From an uncultured Opitutales bacterium (lineage in GTDB: Bacteria; Verrucomicrobiota; Verrucomicrobiia; Opitutales; Intestinicryptomonadaceae): a stretch of 32,000 nucleotides of DNA. Of the stretch, positions 8,010-26,061 are shown piece by piece. Location of the stretch: contig CAKTSY010000002.1 in the NCBI GenBank assembly GCA_934613415.1, forward strand, positions 30,001 through 62,000, read 5' to 3'. The stretch's first letter is position 1; every line of letters starts with the position of its first letter. Under the pieces are notes generated by a model, which saw only the letters and a list, made by a program, of their open reading frames with translations, was not told the origin of the DNA and ran no database searches. The translations under genes and the position numbers were made by a program.

Positions 8010-9524
8010 TTATTTTAATTCGCCAAATTTCGGAATGGATACAAGCTTTAAAATATATTCGTCGCTTTCGCCGCGCTTTTTAAGCGAGTATGTTACCAAA
8101 GTCGGGTCTTGCAGCTGTGCGGCAAATGCGCCAATTTCGTTTTCTGGCGTTTTTTTAGATTCTATAAGGCGCATTAAAAGATTGGGTTTAACAGAAGAAT
8201 CGGTTCCCTGCAGTTTGTTTAGCCAACTTTTCATTAGGGGCAAAATGCTGTCTATAGAATCTGTGGCAAAGGCTGTATTAAGGAAAATCTCGGCGCAGTC
8301 GTCCGAGGCATCTTTTTCTTTTGCCATAATTTCGTAGGCCTTGCCCAAAAAGTTGTAGGCAAAAGTCTTGTCGGCGGCATAGGCGCAGTTAACAATGTAG
8401 CAAAGGGCGGCGTAGTGCATATCTGCATACAGGCCGTTTTGCGCAAAGCCCCAGGCTGTTGCCAATTCTATAATGTCTTCTTTTGCAAGGCTGTCGGGGT
8501 TAACTATTCGCAGTTTTTGACAAATTTGCGCAAAGTTTTTAGCGGAGGAAGCTGCGGTTGCCACTTTAACAAAGGCGCGGTCTCTGGCTGCTTTGTCTTG
8601 GCAAAGCATTGCCGTTTCAAACGCCTTTTCGGGGTTGTTGTAGGCGCACGCCTGGGCAAGCTGTATCAAAAATGCGTCTTTTTGCGCGCCGTTTGGCAGG
8701 CTTGCCAAAAGCTTTTTTACCCTGTTTATGTCGCCCGAATTTGCCGCGCACTTTGCCAAATATTGCGTGGCGTCGTTCTTGGCTTTGTCGTTTTCTATTT
8801 CGTTGCAAAGGCGCAATGCCCCTTCAAACGCGCCCAAATTTGCATATATTTTCACCAAATATGCCATCGCCTCGTAGCGGCGAAAATCTACACTTATTTT
8901 CTTTATGTTTTCGTTTGCAGAAATCGCCGTTTCCAAAAATAGGTCGGCAAGCTCTGGGTTTGTCTGCAGGTCTTTCGATTTTTCGAAAATATTTTTTATG
9001 GCGTCCATTTCGTAGACAATAAGCGAACGCTGCATTTTTAGATATTTTGCATATTCGTTAATGTCTATGTTCTTCTTTTGTTTGGGTGTAGCCGGCTTGC
9101 TTTGCCTTTCCTTAAAACGCGGGCTCTCGTATACTGGCTGGCAATAATCTGGGGAGGGCATTCCAAAGAATTCGCACAAAACACCGTTTTTATTTGCAAC
9201 GGCTCTTTTTAGTTTTGGCAGAATATTGTTTTCGAAGTCGGCATACTTTACCGTGCCCATGGTAAGTGCGGGGTTAGATACCATCTGCAGCGCAATTTCC
9301 GACGATGGGAACTCTTTTAAAATTCTTTCGGCGTCGGCATGCGAAAGTTCGCACAAAGCCAGCGCGTCGCTAAAATTACCCTTTTCGAATTGGGCGGCGG
9401 CTCTGTTTAGCCTAAGAGACGCGTTAACAAAAAGCTCGTTTGCCGATGTCTTTTCGGGTTTGTTGCACGAGCACAAAAAAAACGCCGCAAGCGAAAGGGT
9501 GGCAACTTTTAAAATCGGTTTCAT
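8010..9524 (-). CDS. Lipoprotein with TPR-like helical repeats, function unknown
   Basis: 504 aa with a signal peptide and lipobox-like FLCSC. The body is a long alpha-helical, Ala/Leu-rich repeat region with no catalytic motif. Confidence 0.55.
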   Translation of the reverse strand: MKPILKVATLSLAAFFLCSCNKPEKTSANELFVNASLRLNRAAAQFEKGNFSDALALCELSHADAERILKEFPSSEIALQMVSNPALTMGTVKYADFENNILPKLKRAVANKNGVLCEFFGMPSPDYCQPVYESPRFKERQSKPATPKQKKNIDINEYAKYLKMQRSLIVYEMDAIKNIFEKSKDLQTNPELADLFLETAISANENIKKISVDFRRYEAMAYLVKIYANLGAFEGALRLCNEIENDKAKNDATQYLAKCAANSGDINRVKKLLASLPNGAQKDAFLIQLAQACAYNNPEKAFETAMLCQDKAARDRAFVKVATAASSAKNFAQICQKLRIVNPDSLAKEDIIELATAWGFAQNGLYADMHYAALCYIVNCAYAADKTFAYNFLGKAYEIMAKEKDASDDCAEIFLNTAFATDSIDSILPLMKSWLNKLQGTDSSVKPNLLMRLIESKKTPENEIGAFAAQLQDPTLVTYSLKKRGESDEYILKLVSIPKFGELK

Positions 9525-10720: not shown

Positions 10721-12049
10721 TTAGTGTGGGAACAACAGCATTTCGTTTATTCTCGACAACGTCGAAAAATGCAATGTTGCAAAGGGTTTGTCGTTTATGA
10801 ATATCTCCCTTTTTTCGGGAAATTTCAAGCCGTCCGAAAAGATTTTTTTGTTCGAGAATAAAATTTTAAACGACATTTGCTCGGCTTCGTAACAAATGCT
10901 TTTTATGTCGCCGCTTTGCTTGTCGAAAAAGTATTCGTAGGTTCTTGAGGGCGTTGTAACTTTAAGCGAGCAAAGCGATTTGTCGGGCGAGTCTTTGCCG
11001 CGAACAATCTCTATTCTGCGCGAGTCGCTCGAAAGCCCGCCAAAGGGGAACGCCTTTGCAAGCAAAACTTCGTCGAACAAAAACAGCGATTTTAAGGCTT
11101 CGTTTTCGGCAAATTCCAACGCCTGACTTGGACCCGAAACGGTTGCCGTTAGCAGCTTTCTGCCCAAAGTGTATTCGGGTATAAAATACGCCGCCGAAAC
11201 GCCGTTTGTGTCGGTCGTTTTTAGATAGGTATTGCCGTTTCGGTTTTTTATTACCCTTAAAGCGTAGTTTTTGCCCTGAATTGTTGCAGTGCCTCGCATA
11301 AGCTCGTCTCTCGAGCGCGAAATGGTTTCGAACAGGCCCGTAGCTTTGTAGAACTTTTTTATTATGTTGTTTGCTTCGCTGTTTGGCAGCTTCCAAAACT
11401 TTTTTTCGTCTTTTTCTTCGGGCGAAATGCCGTCGCCGTCTTCTGCCATAGCCATTCTGTCGGAATACGAATTGGCTTTGGAGCTTGTTAAAACCCAGGT
11501 AACCAAAACGCCCAAGCCCGACAACAACGCGCCCGTCAAAATTATTATCGACACCGTTTTTATGAACGAAACTTTGCGCTCTTTTTCGAGGGCAATAGCC
11601 TCCATTTGTTCGGCGTTTTTTTGAATTTCGCTTTGGCGGCGTTTAAGTTCGGCGTCGTCTACAAGGTCTTTGCCTTTTTTTTCGAAAGGTTCGTCTTCTA
11701 CATATTCAAAATCGGGTTCGGCTTCGAAATTGGAATCTTCAAAATAAGCCGAATGCATATCGACAGACGAATTTTCGCCGTTTTCGCTTGAAGATGGATT
11801 TTCTTCAACCTCTTCGTAGCCTGCGTCTTTAAAGGCAGCAAGGTGTTCTTTGTCGATTTCTATTTCTTCAAAAACTTCCTCTTCTTCGAATTCGGGCGGA
11901 GGAGGAAAGCCGCCCCTAAACGGCGGAGGCGGCGGTATAAAATAGGGCGGTAGGGGAGGGGGAAAGGGAGGAGGCGTAAAAGGTGCGCCGCTTTCGGGCA
12001 TCTTTCGCTTCCTTAGCCTTGGGTTTACCTCGTTGCCGCCCTTTTGCAT
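10721..12049 (-). CDS. Single-pass membrane protein with an N-terminal polyproline/acidic region and a C-terminal extracytoplasmic domain, function unknown
   Basis: 442 aa. Residues 23-52 read PFTPPPFPPPLPPYFIPPPPPFRGGFPPPP, followed by a long E/D-rich stretch. The TM helix is at about 162-187 (FIKTVSIIILTGALLSGLGVLVTWVL), preceded by KERK. The true start could be Met17. Confidence 0.6.
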   Translation of the reverse strand: MQKGGNEVNPRLRKRKMPESGAPFTPPPFPPPLPPYFIPPPPPFRGGFPPPPEFEEEEVFEEIEIDKEHLAAFKDAGYEEVEENPSSSENGENSSVDMHSAYFEDSNFEAEPDFEYVEDEPFEKKGKDLVDDAELKRRQSEIQKNAEQMEAIALEKERKVSFIKTVSIIILTGALLSGLGVLVTWVLTSSKANSYSDRMAMAEDGDGISPEEKDEKKFWKLPNSEANNIIKKFYKATGLFETISRSRDELMRGTATIQGKNYALRVIKNRNGNTYLKTTDTNGVSAAYFIPEYTLGRKLLTATVSGPSQALEFAENEALKSLFLFDEVLLAKAFPFGGLSSDSRRIEIVRGKDSPDKSLCSLKVTTPSRTYEYFFDKQSGDIKSICYEAEQMSFKILFSNKKIFSDGLKFPEKREIFINDKPFATLHFSTLSRINEMLLFPH

Positions 12050-16568: not shown

Positions 16569-16610
16569 AAGCCGCCGCAAATTAAAAAATTTGCGGCGGC
16601 TTCTTTGTTC
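16569..16610 (+). terminator. Intrinsic terminator after the rhamnosidase gene
   Basis: A perfect 15-bp stem, AAGCCGCCGCAAATT (16569-16583) paired with AATTTGCGGCGGCTT (16588-16602), with a 4-nt loop, followed by a T-rich CTTTGTT. Confidence 0.8.
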
Positions 16611-16683: not shown

Positions 16684-16780
16684 TATACAAATTTTGTATA
16701 ATATTGCTTTGTTTTTGTAAATTTATACGCAATTCGTATATTATTCTTGATTTTTGTAAAATTTATACGATTATTGTATA
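16684..16780 (+). promoter_or_regulatory. Array of three phased TATAC-N7-GTATA palindromes, putative HipB operators
   Basis: The copies are TATACAAATTTTGTATA (16684-16700), TATACGCAATTCGTATA (16724-16740) and TATACGATTATTGTATA (16764-16780). Their starts are exactly 40 bp apart, and the last ends 3 nt before the hipB ATG. Confidence 0.6.
16715..16742 (+). promoter_or_regulatory. Candidate hipBST promoter overlapping the middle operator
   Basis: TTGTAA (16715-16720), a 16-nt spacer, then TATATT (16737-16742). The -10 overlaps the right arm of the second palindrome. Confidence 0.35.
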
Positions 16781-16783
16781 AAA

Positions 16784-16999
16784 ATGAGCGAGCAACTGAA
16801 AGATTTTGTAAAATCCCGACGCAAGGAATTGAAAATGACGCAACAGTCTCTTGCCGACAAGAGCGGCGTTGGCATTCATTTTGTTCGCGATATAGAGCAG
16901 GGCAAGCAAGACCTTCGCATAAAAAAAGTAAATCAAGTTTTGTTTATGTTCGGCGCAAAGCTAGCCCCCGTTGCACTCGATAAGGAGGATAGGCAATGA
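16784..16999 (+). CDS. hipB: XRE-family HTH protein, HipB-like component of a tripartite HipBST module
   Basis: 71 aa with an HTH_3 pattern (RRKELKMTQQSLADKSGVGIHFVRDIEQGKQDLRIKKVNQVL). Its stop overlaps the next start as ATGA. Confidence 0.75.
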   Translation: MSEQLKDFVKSRRKELKMTQQSLADKSGVGIHFVRDIEQGKQDLRIKKVNQVLFMFGAKLAPVALDKEDRQ

Positions 17000-17322
17000 G
17001 AAGCGCAAAGATTTTTTTTAAAGACGTGTTTGCAGGAACATTGCGCGAAACGGAGGCGGGCTACGAATTTGTCTACGACGAAAACTACCTTCGCGCAGAA
17101 TCCGCCCAACCTGTAAGCCTTACTTTGCCGCTTCGAATTGCTCCGTATACGCAAAAAACGCTCTTTTCGTTTTTTGACGGACTTATTCCGGAAGGCTGGT
17201 TGCTTGATTTTGCCGCGCAAACTTGGAAACTTGACCCCCGCGACAGAATGGGGCTTTTGCTTGCATGTTGCAAAGATTGCATAGGCGCAGTTAGTGTTGT
17301 AGGAGCCGAGCACGACAAATGA
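16996..17322 (+). CDS. hipS: HipS-like protein (stand-alone HipA N-terminal domain), putative antitoxin
   Basis: 108 aa with HipA N-terminal/Couple_hipA motifs (FFDGLIPEGWLL, DRMGLLLACCKDCIGAVSV). There is a strong SD, AAGGAGG (16982-16988), and ATGA overlaps on both sides. Confidence 0.8.
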   Translation: MRSAKIFFKDVFAGTLRETEAGYEFVYDENYLRAESAQPVSLTLPLRIAPYTQKTLFSFFDGLIPEGWLLDFAAQTWKLDPRDRMGLLLACCKDCIGAVSVVGAEHDK

Positions 17323-18263
17323 AAAGATGCTTGTATTGCTATAAGCCGCTAAACGACGGGGAAATTGATTTTCACGCGTCTTGCGCAAAAAAATTTTTTG
17401 GAACTTCTGTTGTTCCAAAACTGCCTTACACGCAAGCCGACTTAAAGGAGCTTGCCAAACAGGTTGTGCGCTCGCATACGACAATAGCGGGCGTTCAGCC
17501 GAAGCTTTCTATGTATCTCGACAAAGCTGTTCGAGCCAATCCGAAACTTACAATTGTAGGCGTGTTCGGTAACTTTATTTTAAAGCCGCAAGCCGCGAGG
17601 TTTCGCAATCTTCCCGAAAATGAAGATTTAAGTATGCATTTGGCGGAAATTGCAGGGGTTTCAACCGTGCCGCATTCTCTAATGCGCTTCGCCGACGGCG
17701 AACTTTGCTATGTTACAAAGAGAATAGACCGCGGCGCAAAAGGCGAAAAATCTCCGATGGAAGATATGGCGCAACTGACTTTGCGCTTGAGCGAAGACAA
17801 ATACAAATCGTCCTACGAGCGAATTGCAAAAACTATCCGTGAATATTCCGACAATGTCGGTTTCGACCTTTCAAATCTTGCCGAGCAGGTTTTGTTTTCG
17901 TGGATAATCGGTAATTCGGATATGCACTTGAAGAATTTTTCGCTTATAAAAAATGCAGATAAATGGCAGCTTTCGCCAGCCTACGATATGCTAAATGTAA
18001 AACTGGCACTGCCGGACGACACGGAAGAATTGGCATTAACCCTTAACGGCAAGGGTGGAGCCATGTATAAGTTCACAAGAAATGACTTTGTAAAATCATT
18101 CAAAACATTCGGCTTGCCGAATTCGGCCATAGACAACCTGTTTGCCAGAATGATTAAAGCCAAATCAAAGCTTTGCGATTTTGTATCGGCAAGTTTTTTG
18201 CCAACAAAAATGCAAGATGCTTTTTGCGAACTTATAAAGGAAAGAATAGCGCGATTGTGTTAA
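17319..18263 (+). CDS. hipT: HipT-like Ser/Thr kinase toxin (HipA C-terminal kinase core)
   Basis: 314 aa. It carries a Gly-rich loop (TTIAGVQPKLS), a catalytic loop (IGNSDMHLKNFSL), a Mg-binding PAYDMLN motif and an N-terminal CxxC...HxxC. Confidence 0.85.
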   Translation: MKRCLYCYKPLNDGEIDFHASCAKKFFGTSVVPKLPYTQADLKELAKQVVRSHTTIAGVQPKLSMYLDKAVRANPKLTIVGVFGNFILKPQAARFRNLPENEDLSMHLAEIAGVSTVPHSLMRFADGELCYVTKRIDRGAKGEKSPMEDMAQLTLRLSEDKYKSSYERIAKTIREYSDNVGFDLSNLAEQVLFSWIIGNSDMHLKNFSLIKNADKWQLSPAYDMLNVKLALPDDTEELALTLNGKGGAMYKFTRNDFVKSFKTFGLPNSAIDNLFARMIKAKSKLCDFVSASFLPTKMQDAFCELIKERIARLC

Positions 18264-18272
18264 CTGCAGGCT

Positions 18273-18306
18273 AAAAAAAACGGCGCCGATATCGGCGCCG
18301 TTTTTT
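18273..18306. terminator. Bidirectional intrinsic terminator shared by hipT and the convergent oxidoreductase gene
   Basis: An A8 run (18273-18280), a perfect 20-nt palindrome CGGCGCCGATATCGGCGCCG (18281-18300), then a T6 run (18301-18306). Confidence 0.85.
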
Positions 18307-19831: not shown

Positions 19832-20692
19832 CTACAAAAGCGCCTTTGCAATGTGTTCTATTTCCTGCAGCATTTCGGGCAAAGTTGTGCCGGTAAACAC
19901 ATATTTTTGATAGCCGCAGTTTTCGTGGAATATGTGGAAAATTTCGCCGTCGTAGTGCGCGGCAAACGCCGCCTGGCAGCCGCCGCCTAGCGCCTCTAAA
20001 AATTTGCGCTCCAGCGTAAAGCAAAGCATTGCGGTTTTGTCGCCTACATTTTCTATTTCGTCTTTGATGTCCGATCTTGTCTGCAATGCGATAATGCCTT
20101 GGGCTACCGCTGGCACGCAGCATTGTGTTTTTAGCTCGGTAAATTTAACACCCTCAAAATTTTTTATGCCAAGCCTTAAAAGCCCGGCCGACGAAAGTAT
20201 CGTTGCCTGCAAGCTGTTCGGCTCGTTCGACGCCACTTTTTTTAGACGCGTTTCAACGCTGCCTCTAATGTCGCTCCAAACCGCCTGCGGGAACATCTTT
20301 TTTAGCTGGCTTCGCCTTCTGGGCGACGATGTTCCTATCAAAGACGGAATTTCGACATTCTCGTTTACGGCAAGCACGTCTTTTGCGGCGTCTCTGGGCA
20401 GGCAGGCTGCAATATACAAATAGTTTGCAACTTTTACGGGCAGGTCTTTTGCGCTGTGCACTGCAATGTCGGCCTCGTCGTTTAAAAGGGCGTCTTCCAG
20501 CTCTTTTGTAAAAAGCCCGTTGCCGCCCATTTTTTCCAAAGACCAGTCTTGACGGCGATCGCCTCCCGTTTTGTAGGTTAAAATTTCGAAAGACGAATCG
20601 GGGATTTTTTGCGACAAAAATTCGGCAGCCATTTGGGCTTGTTTTATTGCAAGCGGGCTGCTTCGGGTTGCAAGTCTATACTTTTTGCCCAT
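19832..20692 (-). CDS. hemC: Hydroxymethylbilane synthase (porphobilinogen deaminase)
   Basis: 287 aa counted from the internal ATG at 20692 (MGKKYRLATRSSPLAIKQAQ...). Motifs present are AVHSAKDLP, GTSSPRRRSQL, IRGSVETRLKK and GGGCQAAFAAH. The longer track ORF, which runs to 20866, overlaps ilvC and is rejected. Confidence 0.88.
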   Translation of the reverse strand: MGKKYRLATRSSPLAIKQAQMAAEFLSQKIPDSSFEILTYKTGGDRRQDWSLEKMGGNGLFTKELEDALLNDEADIAVHSAKDLPVKVANYLYIAACLPRDAAKDVLAVNENVEIPSLIGTSSPRRRSQLKKMFPQAVWSDIRGSVETRLKKVASNEPNSLQATILSSAGLLRLGIKNFEGVKFTELKTQCCVPAVAQGIIALQTRSDIKDEIENVGDKTAMLCFTLERKFLEALGGGCQAAFAAHYDGEIFHIFHENCGYQKYVFTGTTLPEMLQEIEHIAKALL

Positions 20693-20694
20693 AT

Positions 20695-21738
20695 CTATTT
20701 TGCGTAGCCGTCGGCAAAGGCTGCCTTTGCGCCCTTTATATTTTCCCTGGCAATGCAGGGCATTAGCGCGCGCATTCTCATGCCCGTTTTTTCGGCCAAA
20801 TGTTTTTCGCCCGTCGCCAAAAGCTTGTTGTATTTTACCAAGCCGCCGGCATATTCCTTTTCCCACTCGTTGGTAAATTCGCCAGACTGTATTTCCTTAA
20901 GGATTTTTTTCATATTCCTTTTTACGTCTTTGCCTATTACCCTTTGTCCGCGAGTAATGTCGCCGTATTTTGCGGTTTCGGAAATCGCCTTTCTCATTCC
21001 CGAAAATCCGCTTTCGGCAACAAGGTTTACAATAAGCTTAAGCTCGTGTATGCATTCAAAATACGCCATTTCGGGCTTGTAGCCTGCTTCTACTAAAGTT
21101 TCGAACCCAGCCAACGCCAGCGCGCTTAAGCCGCCGCAAAGAACGCATTGCTCGCCAAAAAGGTCGGCTTCGGTTTCTTCTTTAAAGGTGGTTTCCATAA
21201 CTCCCGCGCGCAAAGAGCCTATGCCGCTTGCCCAGGCCAACGCCAACTTTTTGCACTCGGCTCGGTTGCCTTGGGCGGTTGCAATTAAAGCCGGTATTCC
21301 GCCACCGTCTACAAACTGCGCGCGCACTTCGCGCCCCAGGCCTTTAGGGGCAACCATAATAACGTTTATGCCAGCTTGCGGCTTAACAAAGCCCGCGTGT
21401 ATAGACATTCCGTGTATAAATACAAGGGTTTTGCCTTCCGAAATATTTGGTTTTATATCCTTTTCGTATATTTCGGCGTGTTTCATATCTGGGGCAGCCA
21501 TTAAAATAACGTCGGCCTTTTTTACGGCGTTTGCGGTTGTATACACTTCAAACCCGTGTTTGCGGGCGGCTGCAATAGATTTGCTTTTAGGATATAGCCC
21601 TATAATTACATTTAGGCCGCTGTCTTTTAAATTTAAAGCGTGGGCTCTGCCCTGTGCGCCATAGCCTATTACCGCAAGCGTTTTGCCTTTCAACGGCTTA
21701 ATGTTGCCGTCTTTTGCAGTGTAGATTTTTACCGGCAT
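20695..21738 (-). CDS. ilvC: Ketol-acid reductoisomerase, class I
   Basis: 347 aa with the NADP site (VIGYGAQGRAHALNLKDSG) and conserved LFGEQCVLCGG and AYFECIHELKLIV. Confidence 0.95.
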   Translation of the reverse strand: MPVKIYTAKDGNIKPLKGKTLAVIGYGAQGRAHALNLKDSGLNVIIGLYPKSKSIAAARKHGFEVYTTANAVKKADVILMAAPDMKHAEIYEKDIKPNISEGKTLVFIHGMSIHAGFVKPQAGINVIMVAPKGLGREVRAQFVDGGGIPALIATAQGNRAECKKLALAWASGIGSLRAGVMETTFKEETEADLFGEQCVLCGGLSALALAGFETLVEAGYKPEMAYFECIHELKLIVNLVAESGFSGMRKAISETAKYGDITRGQRVIGKDVKRNMKKILKEIQSGEFTNEWEKEYAGGLVKYNKLLATGEKHLAEKTGMRMRALMPCIARENIKGAKAAFADGYAK

Positions 21739-23943: not shown

Positions 23944-24471
23944 ATGGAAAGCTCATTCAACGACCAAAAACTACTTGAAATGCTTCAGGGCGAAAAATTT
24001 CTTGCATTTTTCGACTTTGCAATGAACGACGATTCTTTCGGCGGCGAAAAAGACGGCATTTGCAAGGTTGCGCGTCCAAGCACCAGCACGCTCGAGTATT
24101 TGTCGTTGACATTCATTTTCGATACGCTCGACGACGTAAGGCGCAATATGGCAAAAAGAACGGTCTCGAAACTTACAAGCGAGGCGTTTGCGGCAACAAT
24201 TCCGCAAATCTACGCCATAACAAGCGTGCCCGGCAGCATGAAGCAAAGCGACCACTATATTCACCATATAGACCTTATGTTTAAGGGAGCCTTGCCCGAC
24301 GATATGCAAGAGCTTATAAAAAAGGTGGTTTATGTAATCCGCCACACGGCGGGGCTTGAAACCGAAGTTCCTCAATGGTGGGACGAAAACGAAGCTCCCG
24401 CGCCTTCCGAAGCCGAAAAGGCAAGCTGGAAAGACAGAATCAAGGCCTTTTTGGGTCTTGGTAAAAAATAG
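23944..24471 (+). CDS. Hypothetical protein, first gene of the PP2C/kinase/opp string
   Basis: 175 aa from the ATG at 23944 (MESSFNDQ...). The track ORF starts at a TTG at 23893. I recognise no motif. The C-terminus, SWKDRIKAFLGLGKK, looks amphipathic. Confidence 0.6.
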   Translation: MESSFNDQKLLEMLQGEKFLAFFDFAMNDDSFGGEKDGICKVARPSTSTLEYLSLTFIFDTLDDVRRNMAKRTVSKLTSEAFAATIPQIYAITSVPGSMKQSDHYIHHIDLMFKGALPDDMQELIKKVVYVIRHTAGLETEVPQWWDENEAPAPSEAEKASWKDRIKAFLGLGKK

Positions 24472-24484
24472 GGGCATTTTTTAG

Positions 24485-25657
24485 ATGCAGATTTTTGACG
24501 AAGCTAAAAACGGTTTCGGCTCGAAAATTTCGGTTTTGATGGTAGACGACCAGGCCATTTTCGGCGAGGTTCTTAAGCGAATGATTGCCGAAACGGGCTA
24601 TTTGTTTACCTTTTGCCAGAACCCGTTAGAGGCTGTTGCCGTTGCCGAAAAAGTAAAACCCACCGTAATTTTGCAGGATTTGTCTATGCCCGAAATGGAC
24701 GGGTTAGACTTGGTAAAGGAGTTCAGAAAAAACCCGACTACCGCCGAAGTTCCAATGATTGTATTGTCGGCAACCGACAACGCCGAGATTAAATACAAGG
24801 CGTTTGCAAACGGCGCGAACGACTATATGGTGAAATTGCCCGACAAGCTTGAAATGCTTGCCAGAATAGAATACCACTCGAAAGCCTACATAAATTATTG
24901 CGAAAAAAACAGGGCAATGCAGCTTTTGCAGGAAAGCCAAAACGCGCTAAAAAAAGAGCTGTATCAGGCTCAAAGCTATGTGGAAAGCCTTTTGCCCGAA
25001 AAGTGTTCGTACAACTCGCTTTCGTGCGATTGGGAGTTTCAAAGTTCCACAATGCTTGGGGGCGACTGTTTCGGCTACGGCTTTATAGACGCCGAAAATT
25101 ACGCGGTATATTTGCTGGACGTATGCGGCCACGGCGTGGGGGCGGCATTGCTTTCGGTTTCGGCAATAAACGTTTTGCGTTCGCGAACCCTTGCCGGCGT
25201 AGATTTTAAAGAGCCCGCCGAGGTCTTAAACGCAATGGGAAAAGCCTTTGATATGGAAAAGCAAAACGGAATGTTTTTTACCTTGTGGTACGGCGTATAC
25301 AACACAAAAACGCGCATTTTAAAATATTCCAGCGGCGGGCACCCTCCCGCAATTTTAAAGGACAAAAACGGTCTGCATTTTTTGGGAACAAAGGGGCTTG
25401 TTGTAGGCTCGAATATGGGCATAGACTATGTTCAAGAGCAAACCACTATTTTGCCCGAAAGCGACTTGTTTGTGTTTTCCGACGGCGTGTACGAAGTGGA
25501 AAAGCAAGCCGACAAGTCTATGATGACAATAGAAGACTTTGCCGAAATAATAAAACAAACATCGTCTTTAAAGGAAATAAAAAAGGCGGTGCAAGCCGTT
25601 CAGGGGCGCGACAATTTCGACGACGATTTCAGCCTATTTAAAGTGTCTATAAAATGA
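24485..25657 (+). CDS. Response regulator receiver fused to a PP2C/SpoIIE-type phosphatase (RsbU-like)
   Basis: 390 aa. The REC domain shows VLMVDDQ, LQDLSMPEMDG and GANDYMVKLPD. The SpoIIE domain shows GGDCFGYGF..VYLLDVCGHGVGAALLS and FSDGVYE. Confidence 0.9.
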   Translation: MQIFDEAKNGFGSKISVLMVDDQAIFGEVLKRMIAETGYLFTFCQNPLEAVAVAEKVKPTVILQDLSMPEMDGLDLVKEFRKNPTTAEVPMIVLSATDNAEIKYKAFANGANDYMVKLPDKLEMLARIEYHSKAYINYCEKNRAMQLLQESQNALKKELYQAQSYVESLLPEKCSYNSLSCDWEFQSSTMLGGDCFGYGFIDAENYAVYLLDVCGHGVGAALLSVSAINVLRSRTLAGVDFKEPAEVLNAMGKAFDMEKQNGMFFTLWYGVYNTKTRILKYSSGGHPPAILKDKNGLHFLGTKGLVVGSNMGIDYVQEQTTILPESDLFVFSDGVYEVEKQADKSMMTIEDFAEIIKQTSSLKEIKKAVQAVQGRDNFDDDFSLFKVSIK

Positions 25658-26061
25658 CGAAAAAAACATACACAAGCTCGCTGGAAAACGTAGAGCGTCT
25701 TTCGCAAGACGTAGAGGAATTTTTTGCGCAAAAGGGTGTAGACAATGCCGCAATATTCGCCATAAACCTTTGTTTAGACGAGCTTTTTACAAATTCTGTA
25801 ACCTACGGCTACAAGGGCAAAGCCGACGGCAAAATAGAGGTAGAGCTTTCCCTAAACGGAAATACCGCCGAAGTTCTTTTGCGCGACTTTGCTCCCGAAT
25901 TCGACCCTACAAAATCGGGCAAAGAGGCCGATTTAACTTCGGGTATAGACGAGCGAAAAATAGGCGGGTTAGGCATATATTTTTGCAAAAAGAATATGGA
26001 CGAATTTTCGTATGCCAGAAAGGGCTGTGCCAACGAAATTACATTGAAAAAACGCATATAA
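25654..26061 (+). CDS. RsbW/SpoIIAB-like anti-sigma regulatory Ser/Thr kinase (HATPase_c_2)
   Basis: 135 aa with an N-box (LCLDELFTNSVTYGY) and a G-box (IGGLGIYFCKKNMDEF). It has an ATGA overlap with the upstream phosphatase gene. Confidence 0.8.
   Translation: MTKKTYTSSLENVERLSQDVEEFFAQKGVDNAAIFAINLCLDELFTNSVTYGYKGKADGKIEVELSLNGNTAEVLLRDFAPEFDPTKSGKEADLTSGIDERKIGGLGIYFCKKNMDEFSYARKGCANEITLKKRI

Follow-up and report, generated by a model that had tools for sequence, protein, structure and literature searches.

A predicted tripartite HipB-HipS-HipT kinase toxin-antitoxin operon in an uncultured gut Opitutales bacterium

Do the three small, tightly coupled genes at positions 16784 to 18263 of a 32-kb stretch of DNA from an uncultured gut Opitutales bacterium (contig CAKTSY010000002.1, positions 30,001 to 62,000; hereafter, the window) form a genuine HipB-HipS-HipT (HipBST) toxin-antitoxin (TA) system, and which of the studied systems comes nearest to it? 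A first-pass annotation, made from the letters of the sequence, had proposed a tripartite split-HipA cassette in an unstudied host, and the uncultured Opitutales origin of the DNA agrees with the latter statement. The proposed system type was upheld on every sequence-level criterion that we examined, and as far as sequence can tell, the cassette is an intact hipB-hipS-hipT operon and one more, unexceptional representative of a known family. We consider it very probable that it represents a functional type II tripartite HipBST system of the Legionella pneumophila-like subclade, fixed in a gut Opitutales chromosome amid housekeeping and glycan-utilization genes.

Gene layout, domains and kinase residues

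The cassette consists of three open reading frames (ORFs) in the same orientation on the forward strand, at 16784 to 16999 (71 aa), 16996 to 17322 (108 aa) and 17319 to 18263 (314 aa). Both junctions are ATGA start/stop overlaps that can be read directly in the sequence (ggcaATGAgaagc at 16996 and gacaaATGAaaag at 17319), as had been described in the first-pass annotation. In hidden Markov model searches with Pfam and TIGRFAM models, including HTH_3, Couple_hipA and HipA_C, every domain call passed its curated cut-off. The first gene, hipB, encodes an XRE-family helix-turn-helix (HTH) protein that matches HTH_3 (2.3e-6; 28 bits against a cut-off of 23) and TIGR03070 couple_hipB (74.7 bits against 71.65). 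The second, hipS, corresponds to N-subdomain 1 of HipA only, with Couple_hipA covering residues 5 to 101 of 108 (1.3e-26 for Pfam and 9.6e-30 for TIGR03071), and the third, hipT, encodes a HipA-type Ser/Thr kinase core (HipA_C, 3e-45). These matches bear out the domain identities and lengths assigned at first sight to all three ORFs, and the motifs quoted at the time (FFDGLIPEGWLL, DRMGLLLACCKDCIGAVSV, GVQPK, GNSDMHLKNFSL and PAYDMLN) are all found in the translations. The order hipB-hipS-hipT recurs in seven related loci, and by analogy with studied homologues, HipB is the presumed autorepressor of the operon, HipS the presumed antitoxin and HipT the presumed toxin. The N terminus chosen for HipB is supported by the coverage of TIGR03070, which starts at residue 4, and by synonymous variation of the third codon (GAG here, GAA in the related loci L005 and L006); hipS is preceded by a strong Shine-Dalgarno (SD) sequence, AAGGAGG.

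Among solved structures, the best match of HipT was L. pneumophila HipT, here called HipT(Lp) (8EZR/7VKB/7WCF; 1.3e-44), followed by HipT of Escherichia coli O127, HipT(Ec) (7AB3-5; 1.8e-24), and by Shewanella and E. coli HipA (1e-6 to 1e-4). HipS matched Haemophilus influenzae HI_0666 (2e-14), HipS(Lp) (3e-14), HipS(Ec) (1.2e-9) and HipA residues 21 to 105, and the sole match of HipB was HipB(Lp) (8ezt; 1.6e-4). When concatenated, HipS and HipT are colinear with residues 22 to 429 of E. coli K-12 HipA (E = 4e-22). In this alignment, HipT D201, N206, D223 and T55 correspond to HipA D309, N314, D332 and S150, and, more broadly, G58-V-Q-P-K62 and D201/H203/K205/N206 fall on HipA G153..K157 and D309/H311/K313/N314. 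The Asp and Asn of the HLKN loop are thus equivalent to those of HipA, which upholds the kinase reading given in the first-pass annotation. All of the key elements lie on the forward strand: the Gly-rich (P-) loop T54-T55-I56-A57-G-V-Q-P-K62 at 17478 to 17504, the catalytic loop D201-M-H-L-K-N206 at 17919 to 17936 and the Mg2+-binding Asp D223 (D233 in HipT(Ec)) at 17985 to 17987. G58-V-Q-P-K62 and the catalytic and Mg-binding residues are invariant among the homologues.

T55, which also aligns with HipT(Ec) S57 and HipT(Lp) S54, is the predicted autophosphorylation site and sole acceptor in the loop. With T55-I-A57, the loop offers a single acceptor, as do HipA (S-V-A) and L. pneumophila HipT (S-V-Q), whereas E. 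coli O127:H6 HipT carries two phosphoserines (S57-I-S59); the dual S-psi-S phospho-motif of the Ec subclade is thus absent here. In Prevotella-like homologues the loop mostly reads T-x-T. HipT was modeled with AlphaFold2 on the basis of 55 aligned sequences (alignment A1), and the model reached a predicted local distance difference test (pLDDT) score of 85 and a predicted template modeling (pTM) score of 0.86. Its TM-score was 0.83 to HipT(Lp) (7wcf/7vkc), 0.77 to HipT(Ec) (7ab5) and ∼0.62 to HipA, and residues 53 to 76 around the Gly-rich loop are predicted to be flexible (pLDDT <50). Beyond the cassette, we observed several HipT-like kinases with C-terminal extensions of ∼110 to 320 aa (P0231, 632 aa; P0270, 624 aa; P0259, 574 aa; P0269, 538 aa), of which P0231 and P0270 apparently have a 'CKRP…VRNV' segment in common.

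Relation to studied systems and the N-terminal minidomain of HipT

Judged by bit scores and TM-scores, the nearest characterized system appears to be the HipBST of L. pneumophila (Lpg2368-Lpg2369-Lpg2370; PDB 7VKB, 7VKC, 7WCF, 8EZR, 8EZS and 8EZT) and not that of E. coli O127:H6 (PDB 7AB3, 7AB4 and 7AB5). HipT scored 155.9 bits against the former and 89.8 against the latter, and HipS scored 56.5 and 41.7 bits, respectively. The Lp-type and Ec-type systems have been described as separate subclades, with the Lp type being widespread in the Bacteroidota-containing FCB superphylum (Lin et al., bioRxiv 10.1101/2022.11.26.518041). Gene order and 4-bp overlaps are the same as in L. pneumophila, the proteins are of similar size (71 here and 72 aa there for HipB, 108 and 102 for HipS, 314 and ∼312 for HipT), the single phospho-acceptor of the loop is common to both, and L. 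pneumophila provides the best HipT match and the best fold, with its HipS close behind HI_0666. Moreover, mutations at six positions of HipT(Lp) were found to abolish HipS binding or to reduce it severely (PMC9325769); five of these residues are retained in HipT as D137, R138, E148, K161 and K205, the sixth position being S158 here and R154 in L. pneumophila. The two systems nevertheless differ in several respects: HipT identity is only ∼31 to 38%, HipS has W68 where HipS(Lp) has I65/M66, and the host belongs to the Verrucomicrobiota, whereas L. pneumophila is a gammaproteobacterium.

That tryptophan is instead a likeness to the E. coli O127:H6 system, in which HipT phosphorylates TrpS. The HipS motif P65-E66-G67-W68 (PEGW) aligns with E63/W65 of E. 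coli HipS, of which W65 has been shown to be essential (PMC10627512). The E. coli O127:H6 system also has the tripartite architecture, and its HipT has an alignable N-terminal minidomain and equivalent catalytic and Mg-binding Asp residues. In contrast, that HipT is more distant (21 to 24% identity), and its HipB carries an N-terminal extension, with the HTH at residues 62 to 83. The canonical HipBA of E. coli K-12, in which HipA phosphorylates GltX, has the same kinase fold and all of the catalytic motifs, but there the kinase is a single HipA of ∼440 aa, whereas here it is split between two genes (108 and 314 aa). Sequence comparison therefore depicts the cassette as a mosaic of an Lp-like kinase, an E. 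coli-like HipS Trp and a single phospho-site. These hybrid Lp/Ec features could help to sort out which features of neutralization are general.

The N-terminal minidomain of HipT holds a motif, C4-x2-C7…H19-x2-C22 (CxxC-x11-HxxC; 17328 to 17384, forward strand), which we describe as a putative structural zinc knuckle on the basis of its conservation. C4, C7, H19 and C22 are invariant in 120/120 of the closest HipT homologues and in alignment A1, and residues 1 to 30 were modeled at pLDDT 90 to 94. An exhaustive, profile-free search through 1.84 billion cluster representatives yielded 1672 HipT family members at E<=1e-10; among the best 150 of these 1672 representatives (50%-identity clusters), 120 were N-terminally intact, and in 112 of the 120 (∼93%) a CxxC-x8-18-HxxC motif stands just before the Gly-rich loop. 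E. coli O127 HipT retains the first Cys only, so that three of the four putative zinc ligands are missing from its minidomain. Legionella HipT begins with 'MKHCPITYEK…', having a single Cys and no knuckle, and K-12 HipA has a short linker at the place of the minidomain. We think that the motif is probably a structural zinc site that stabilizes the minidomain. The HipBST literature searchable in full text contains no mention of zinc or of these cysteines, although the feature may still be published.

The knuckle is also present in fused relatives of 427 to 457 aa (P0170, P0174, P0205, P0214, P0218, P0230, P0238, P0239, P0261 and P0264), which consist, in this order, of a HipS-like domain, a linker, the CxxC..HxxC knuckle and a kinase core. 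The HipT subfamily thus comprises fused as well as split proteins, the latter being divided immediately before the knuckle. In two of these relatives, P0174 (440 aa) and P0205 (453 aa), the HipS-like domain is 46 to 57% identical to HipS and the knuckle plus kinase core 37 to 41% identical to HipT, although both are single polypeptides; such fused kinases possibly correspond to the 'HipBA_Bu' clade of Lin et al. A bolder proposal would be that the knuckle serves a function in the HipT subfamily that predominates in Bacteroidota and gut Verrucomicrobiota, either as a redox or zinc switch for HipS release or kinase activation or as a module that recognizes a substrate distinct from TrpS and GltX. 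We regard this as improbable. Should it be true, most HipBST systems of the human gut would use a trigger or a target that lies outside the E. coli and Legionella models; in any case, the CCHC knuckle is a feature on which neither model system can inform.

Operators and boundaries of the transcription unit

Three perfect TATAC-N7-GTATA palindromes, the putative operators, precede hipB: O1 (TATACAAATTTTGTATA; 16684 to 16700), O2 (TATACGCAATTCGTATA; 16724 to 16740) and O3 (TATACGATTATTGTATA; 16764 to 16780). They are spaced by exactly 40 bp in both intervals, and O3 ends 3 bp before the hipB ATG. These are the only three matches to the pattern in the 32 kb of the window, compared to none in 100 shuffles. 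In five other Opitutales loci, the palindromes likewise stand at −99, −59 and −19 relative to the ATG. The half-sites are invariant in the six species and O3 is identical in all six loci, while the spacers and the O1-O2 interval diverge and the DNA further upstream is unrelated. Such a pattern looks like the phylogenetic footprint of a binding site, putatively that of HipB.

The K-12 HipB acts via multiple palindromic operators of the sequence TATCC-N8-GGATA; there are four of them, compared to three with other half-sites here. Three palindromic sites are also seen in related tripartite loci. In Prevotella (L010 and L011) and Bacteroides finegoldii (L024, 1707 to 1966), they are of the TATACC-N6-GGTATA type and lie ∼41 bp apart; in Legionella adelaidensis (L023, 1553 to 1812), three TAC(C/T)G…CAGTA-type repeats precede hipB at a spacing visibly wider than that of the Opitutales sites. 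The triple-operator layout thus seems to be general for the HipBST_Lp-type clade, with half-sites that are clade specific. The arrangement fits HipB autoregulation, and it finds parallels in published work, in that HipB(Lp) shifts its own promoter DNA (Lin et al., bioRxiv 10.1101/2022.11.26.518041) and PhipBST is repressed by HipB(Ec). The conserved layout provides a concrete, testable model of HipB autoregulation.

A sigma-70-like promoter candidate, TTGTAA-16-TATATT (16715 to 16742, forward strand), lies over O2, which overlaps its −10 element. The −10 is conserved in the orthologous loci; however, the −35 is not, and a promoter consensus scan found 3 sites compared to 3.7 expected from shuffles, so that the placement is tentative. 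An alternative promoter over O3, TTG(T/C)AA-16/17-TATAAA, was set aside, since transcription would begin inside hipB. On the left, a terminator-like hairpin with a perfect 15-bp inverted repeat (16569 to 16602, forward strand; 100% complementary, 16/15 pairs, 8 GC) ends the upstream GH78 rhamnosidase gene and marks the left boundary of the cassette transcription unit. On the right, a 14-bp GC-rich hairpin between an A-run and a T-run (18275 to 18306; dG −23.8 kcal/mol, z −4.7, with 0/200 shuffles as stable) looks like a bidirectional terminator common to hipT and to the convergent Gfo/Idh/MocA oxidoreductase gene on the reverse strand. With strong hairpins on both sides, the cassette thus appears to be a self-contained transcription unit.

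Distribution, alternative readings and possible role

The exact HipT protein was found on 21 metagenome contigs, some of them from human-gut samples such as those of the Hadza, and its context never varied. Among species-representative genomes, a scan revealed the same three-gene cassette in five uncultured Opitutales species, one of them 'Candidatus Merdousia gallistercoris', with HipT identities of 85 to 87%, and in two Prevotella metagenome-assembled genomes, with identities of 47 to 55%. Compared to the five Opitutales orthologues (Nei-Gojobori method), dN/dS was 0.02 to 0.03 for hipB, 0.06 to 0.09 for hipS and 0.05 to 0.07 for hipT, at dS values of 0.8 to 1.6. All three genes are thus kept as coding genes under strong purifying selection. 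The family at large counts more than 8000 homologues at E<=1e-10, which carry RefSeq names such as 'HipA N-terminal domain-containing protein / HipA domain-containing protein'. This TA family is established, crystal structures are available for two species and homologues have been annotated by the thousand, and the cassette in itself carries little weight; what the locus adds is the extension of the Lp-type HipBST clade to gut Verrucomicrobiota (Opitutales).

Because HipS and HipT together are colinear with HipA, because their ORFs overlap by 4 bp in different frames and because fused relatives such as P0174 and P0205 exist in the same family, one might ask whether they are the halves of a recently broken full-length hipA, that is, a frameshift pseudogene rather than a true three-component system. 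Purifying selection on all three genes, acting on hipS and hipT at near-saturated dS, rules out such a recent break. Moreover, the split and its ATGA coupling are kept at the same position in Opitutales, Prevotella, Bacteroides and Legionella, a strong SD sequence precedes hipS itself, and in both E. coli and Legionella it is the split form that has been shown by experiment to function. We therefore give this explanation practically no credence. A second question concerns the division of labor within a true three-gene system, in which HipB, rather than HipS, could be the neutralizing antitoxin, as in canonical HipBA, leaving HipS as an accessory lid domain. The model TIGR03070 that HipB matches does bear the NCBI name 'type II toxin-antitoxin system Y4mF family antitoxin', and HipB(Lp) binds HipT(Lp) directly in the yeast two-hybrid assay (Lin et al., bioRxiv 10.1101/2022.11.26.518041). 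However, K-12 HipB ends in ...QNLEW and inserts this C-terminal Trp into HipA, whereas the 71-aa HipB of the cassette ends in ...DKEDRQ, with no terminal Trp, and is not expected to be an antitoxin. In both studied HipBST systems, HipS rescues from toxicity and HipB alone does not, and the cassette retains both the PEGW motif and the residues through which HipT contacts HipS. Neutralization by HipB thus strikes us as very unlikely.

The genomic setting bears on yet another alternative, namely, that the cassette is mainly an abortive-infection (anti-phage) or mobile-element addiction module rather than a persistence or stress TA system, with HipT being freed by phage infection or by loss of the element. 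The cassettes of the five sister species have other surroundings, with DNA ahead of hipB that is unrelated to that of the window. A ∼86%-identical variant on metagenome contigs (L014, 1 to 6351; L015, 261 to 2640) immediately follows Fic and AAA_25 genes; further upstream are a TrwB-like fragment and, at ∼5 kb upstream of the cassette, a ResIII/RE_endonuc restriction gene, a setting that looks like a mobile or defense-island context. The B. finegoldii cassette, for which the record is extrachromosomal, has rhuM and Fic genes in its vicinity. In addition, HipT weakly matches the PADLOC candidate family PDC-M03A (5e-7), and HipAD/DS-6, a different HipA-family kinase system, protects against phage (PMC13092281). 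Within the window, in contrast, the flanks are housekeeping genes. Upstream lie the GH78 alpha-L-rhamnosidase gene and, further up, genes for an oxaloacetate-decarboxylase-like carboxylase and a DegT aminotransferase, recA and dnaE; downstream follow the Gfo/Idh/MocA oxidoreductase gene, hemC, ilvC and the gene for the acetolactate synthase small subunit; no integrase, phage or defense genes were found in the 32 kb. Of the contigs with the exact neighboring oxidoreductase, all 20 that are long enough to show the cassette have it, and no empty site was seen among contigs with that oxidoreductase. The PADLOC matches are partial and cover ∼60 residues of the catalytic core, and our literature search found no published test linking HipBST to phage defense. 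Overall, we judge a mainly anti-phage or addiction role to be possible but rather unlikely.

Two more specific origins were rejected: that of a phage gene, as 50,697 phage records contained no close homologue and only 2 weak matches (23 to 27% identity), and that of a known PADLOC defense system, as only partial matches to the candidate families PDC-M03A/B were obtained. Nevertheless, the same cassette has mobile-element surroundings in sister species but housekeeping neighbors in the window, which suggests horizontal movement of the module from one context to another, as is the case for TA cassettes. A recent transfer is not indicated by GC content, which is 41 to 47% in the cassette and 45 to 50% in the flanks, a difference too small to count as an anomaly.

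For the preferred interpretation, that of an Lp-like HipBST operon, family precedent suggests the following course of events. Free HipT, a Ser/Thr kinase of the HipA fold, would arrest growth by phosphorylating an essential protein, for which an aminoacyl-tRNA synthetase or another translation factor is the most probable candidate. HipS, the split-off N-subdomain 1 of HipA, would bind the N-lobe of HipT and keep the Gly-rich loop incompatible with ATP, the W68 insertion probably being part of the clamp, as a wedge like that of E. coli HipS. Autophosphorylation of T55, the single predicted site, may modulate activity, and the CCHC knuckle probably stabilizes the N-terminal minidomain. HipB dimers on the three operators, which extend over the promoter and 5′ leader, would repress the operon, and HipB probably bridges HipS-HipT units into a higher-order complex.

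Several points weigh against this interpretation or parts of it. HipS(Lp) neutralizes its toxin without an E. coli-type Trp (Lin et al., bioRxiv 10.1101/2022.11.26.518041), so that the role given to W68 is extrapolated from E. coli, whose system is the more distant of the two. The argument for zinc binding is one of residue conservation, and promoter placement is uncertain, given the unconserved −35, the lack of a visible SD sequence at hipB and the position of O3 next to the ATG. Finally, overexpression of TrpS, GltX or PheST did not rescue cells from the toxicity of HipT(Lp), the nearest studied relative (same preprint). The first-pass annotation had taken E. coli O127 HipBST as its model. 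The architecture is indeed the same, but the L. pneumophila system is nearer, and since the toxin of that clade is not rescued by TrpS, the analogy is weakened and TrpS should not be assumed as the target. Rightly, no target or neutralization logic had been named for the cassette itself. Its role could be persistence, mobile-element stabilization or abortive infection, and the mobile-element context in the sister species gives some weight to the latter two.

A few further observations concern other genes of the window. At 24485 to 26061 (forward strand), the genes for a response-regulator/SpoIIE (PP2C) phosphatase and a HATPase_c_2 anti-sigma-type kinase are translationally coupled; the pair looks like a partner-switching module and is followed by two oligopeptide-type ABC ATPase genes. 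For three sizeable ORFs on the reverse strand, at 8010 to 9524 (504 aa), 10721 to 12049 (442 aa) and 23971 to 24477 (168 aa), Pfam gave no match at 1e-5. The latter two are also called as genes on metagenome contigs, the last as 175 aa, with no recorded Pfam match. The hemC ORF (19832 to 20866, reverse strand; 344 aa, GTG start) overlaps ilvC by ∼170 bp; in metagenome gene calls hemC encodes 286 aa, and translation probably begins at an internal ATG near 20694.

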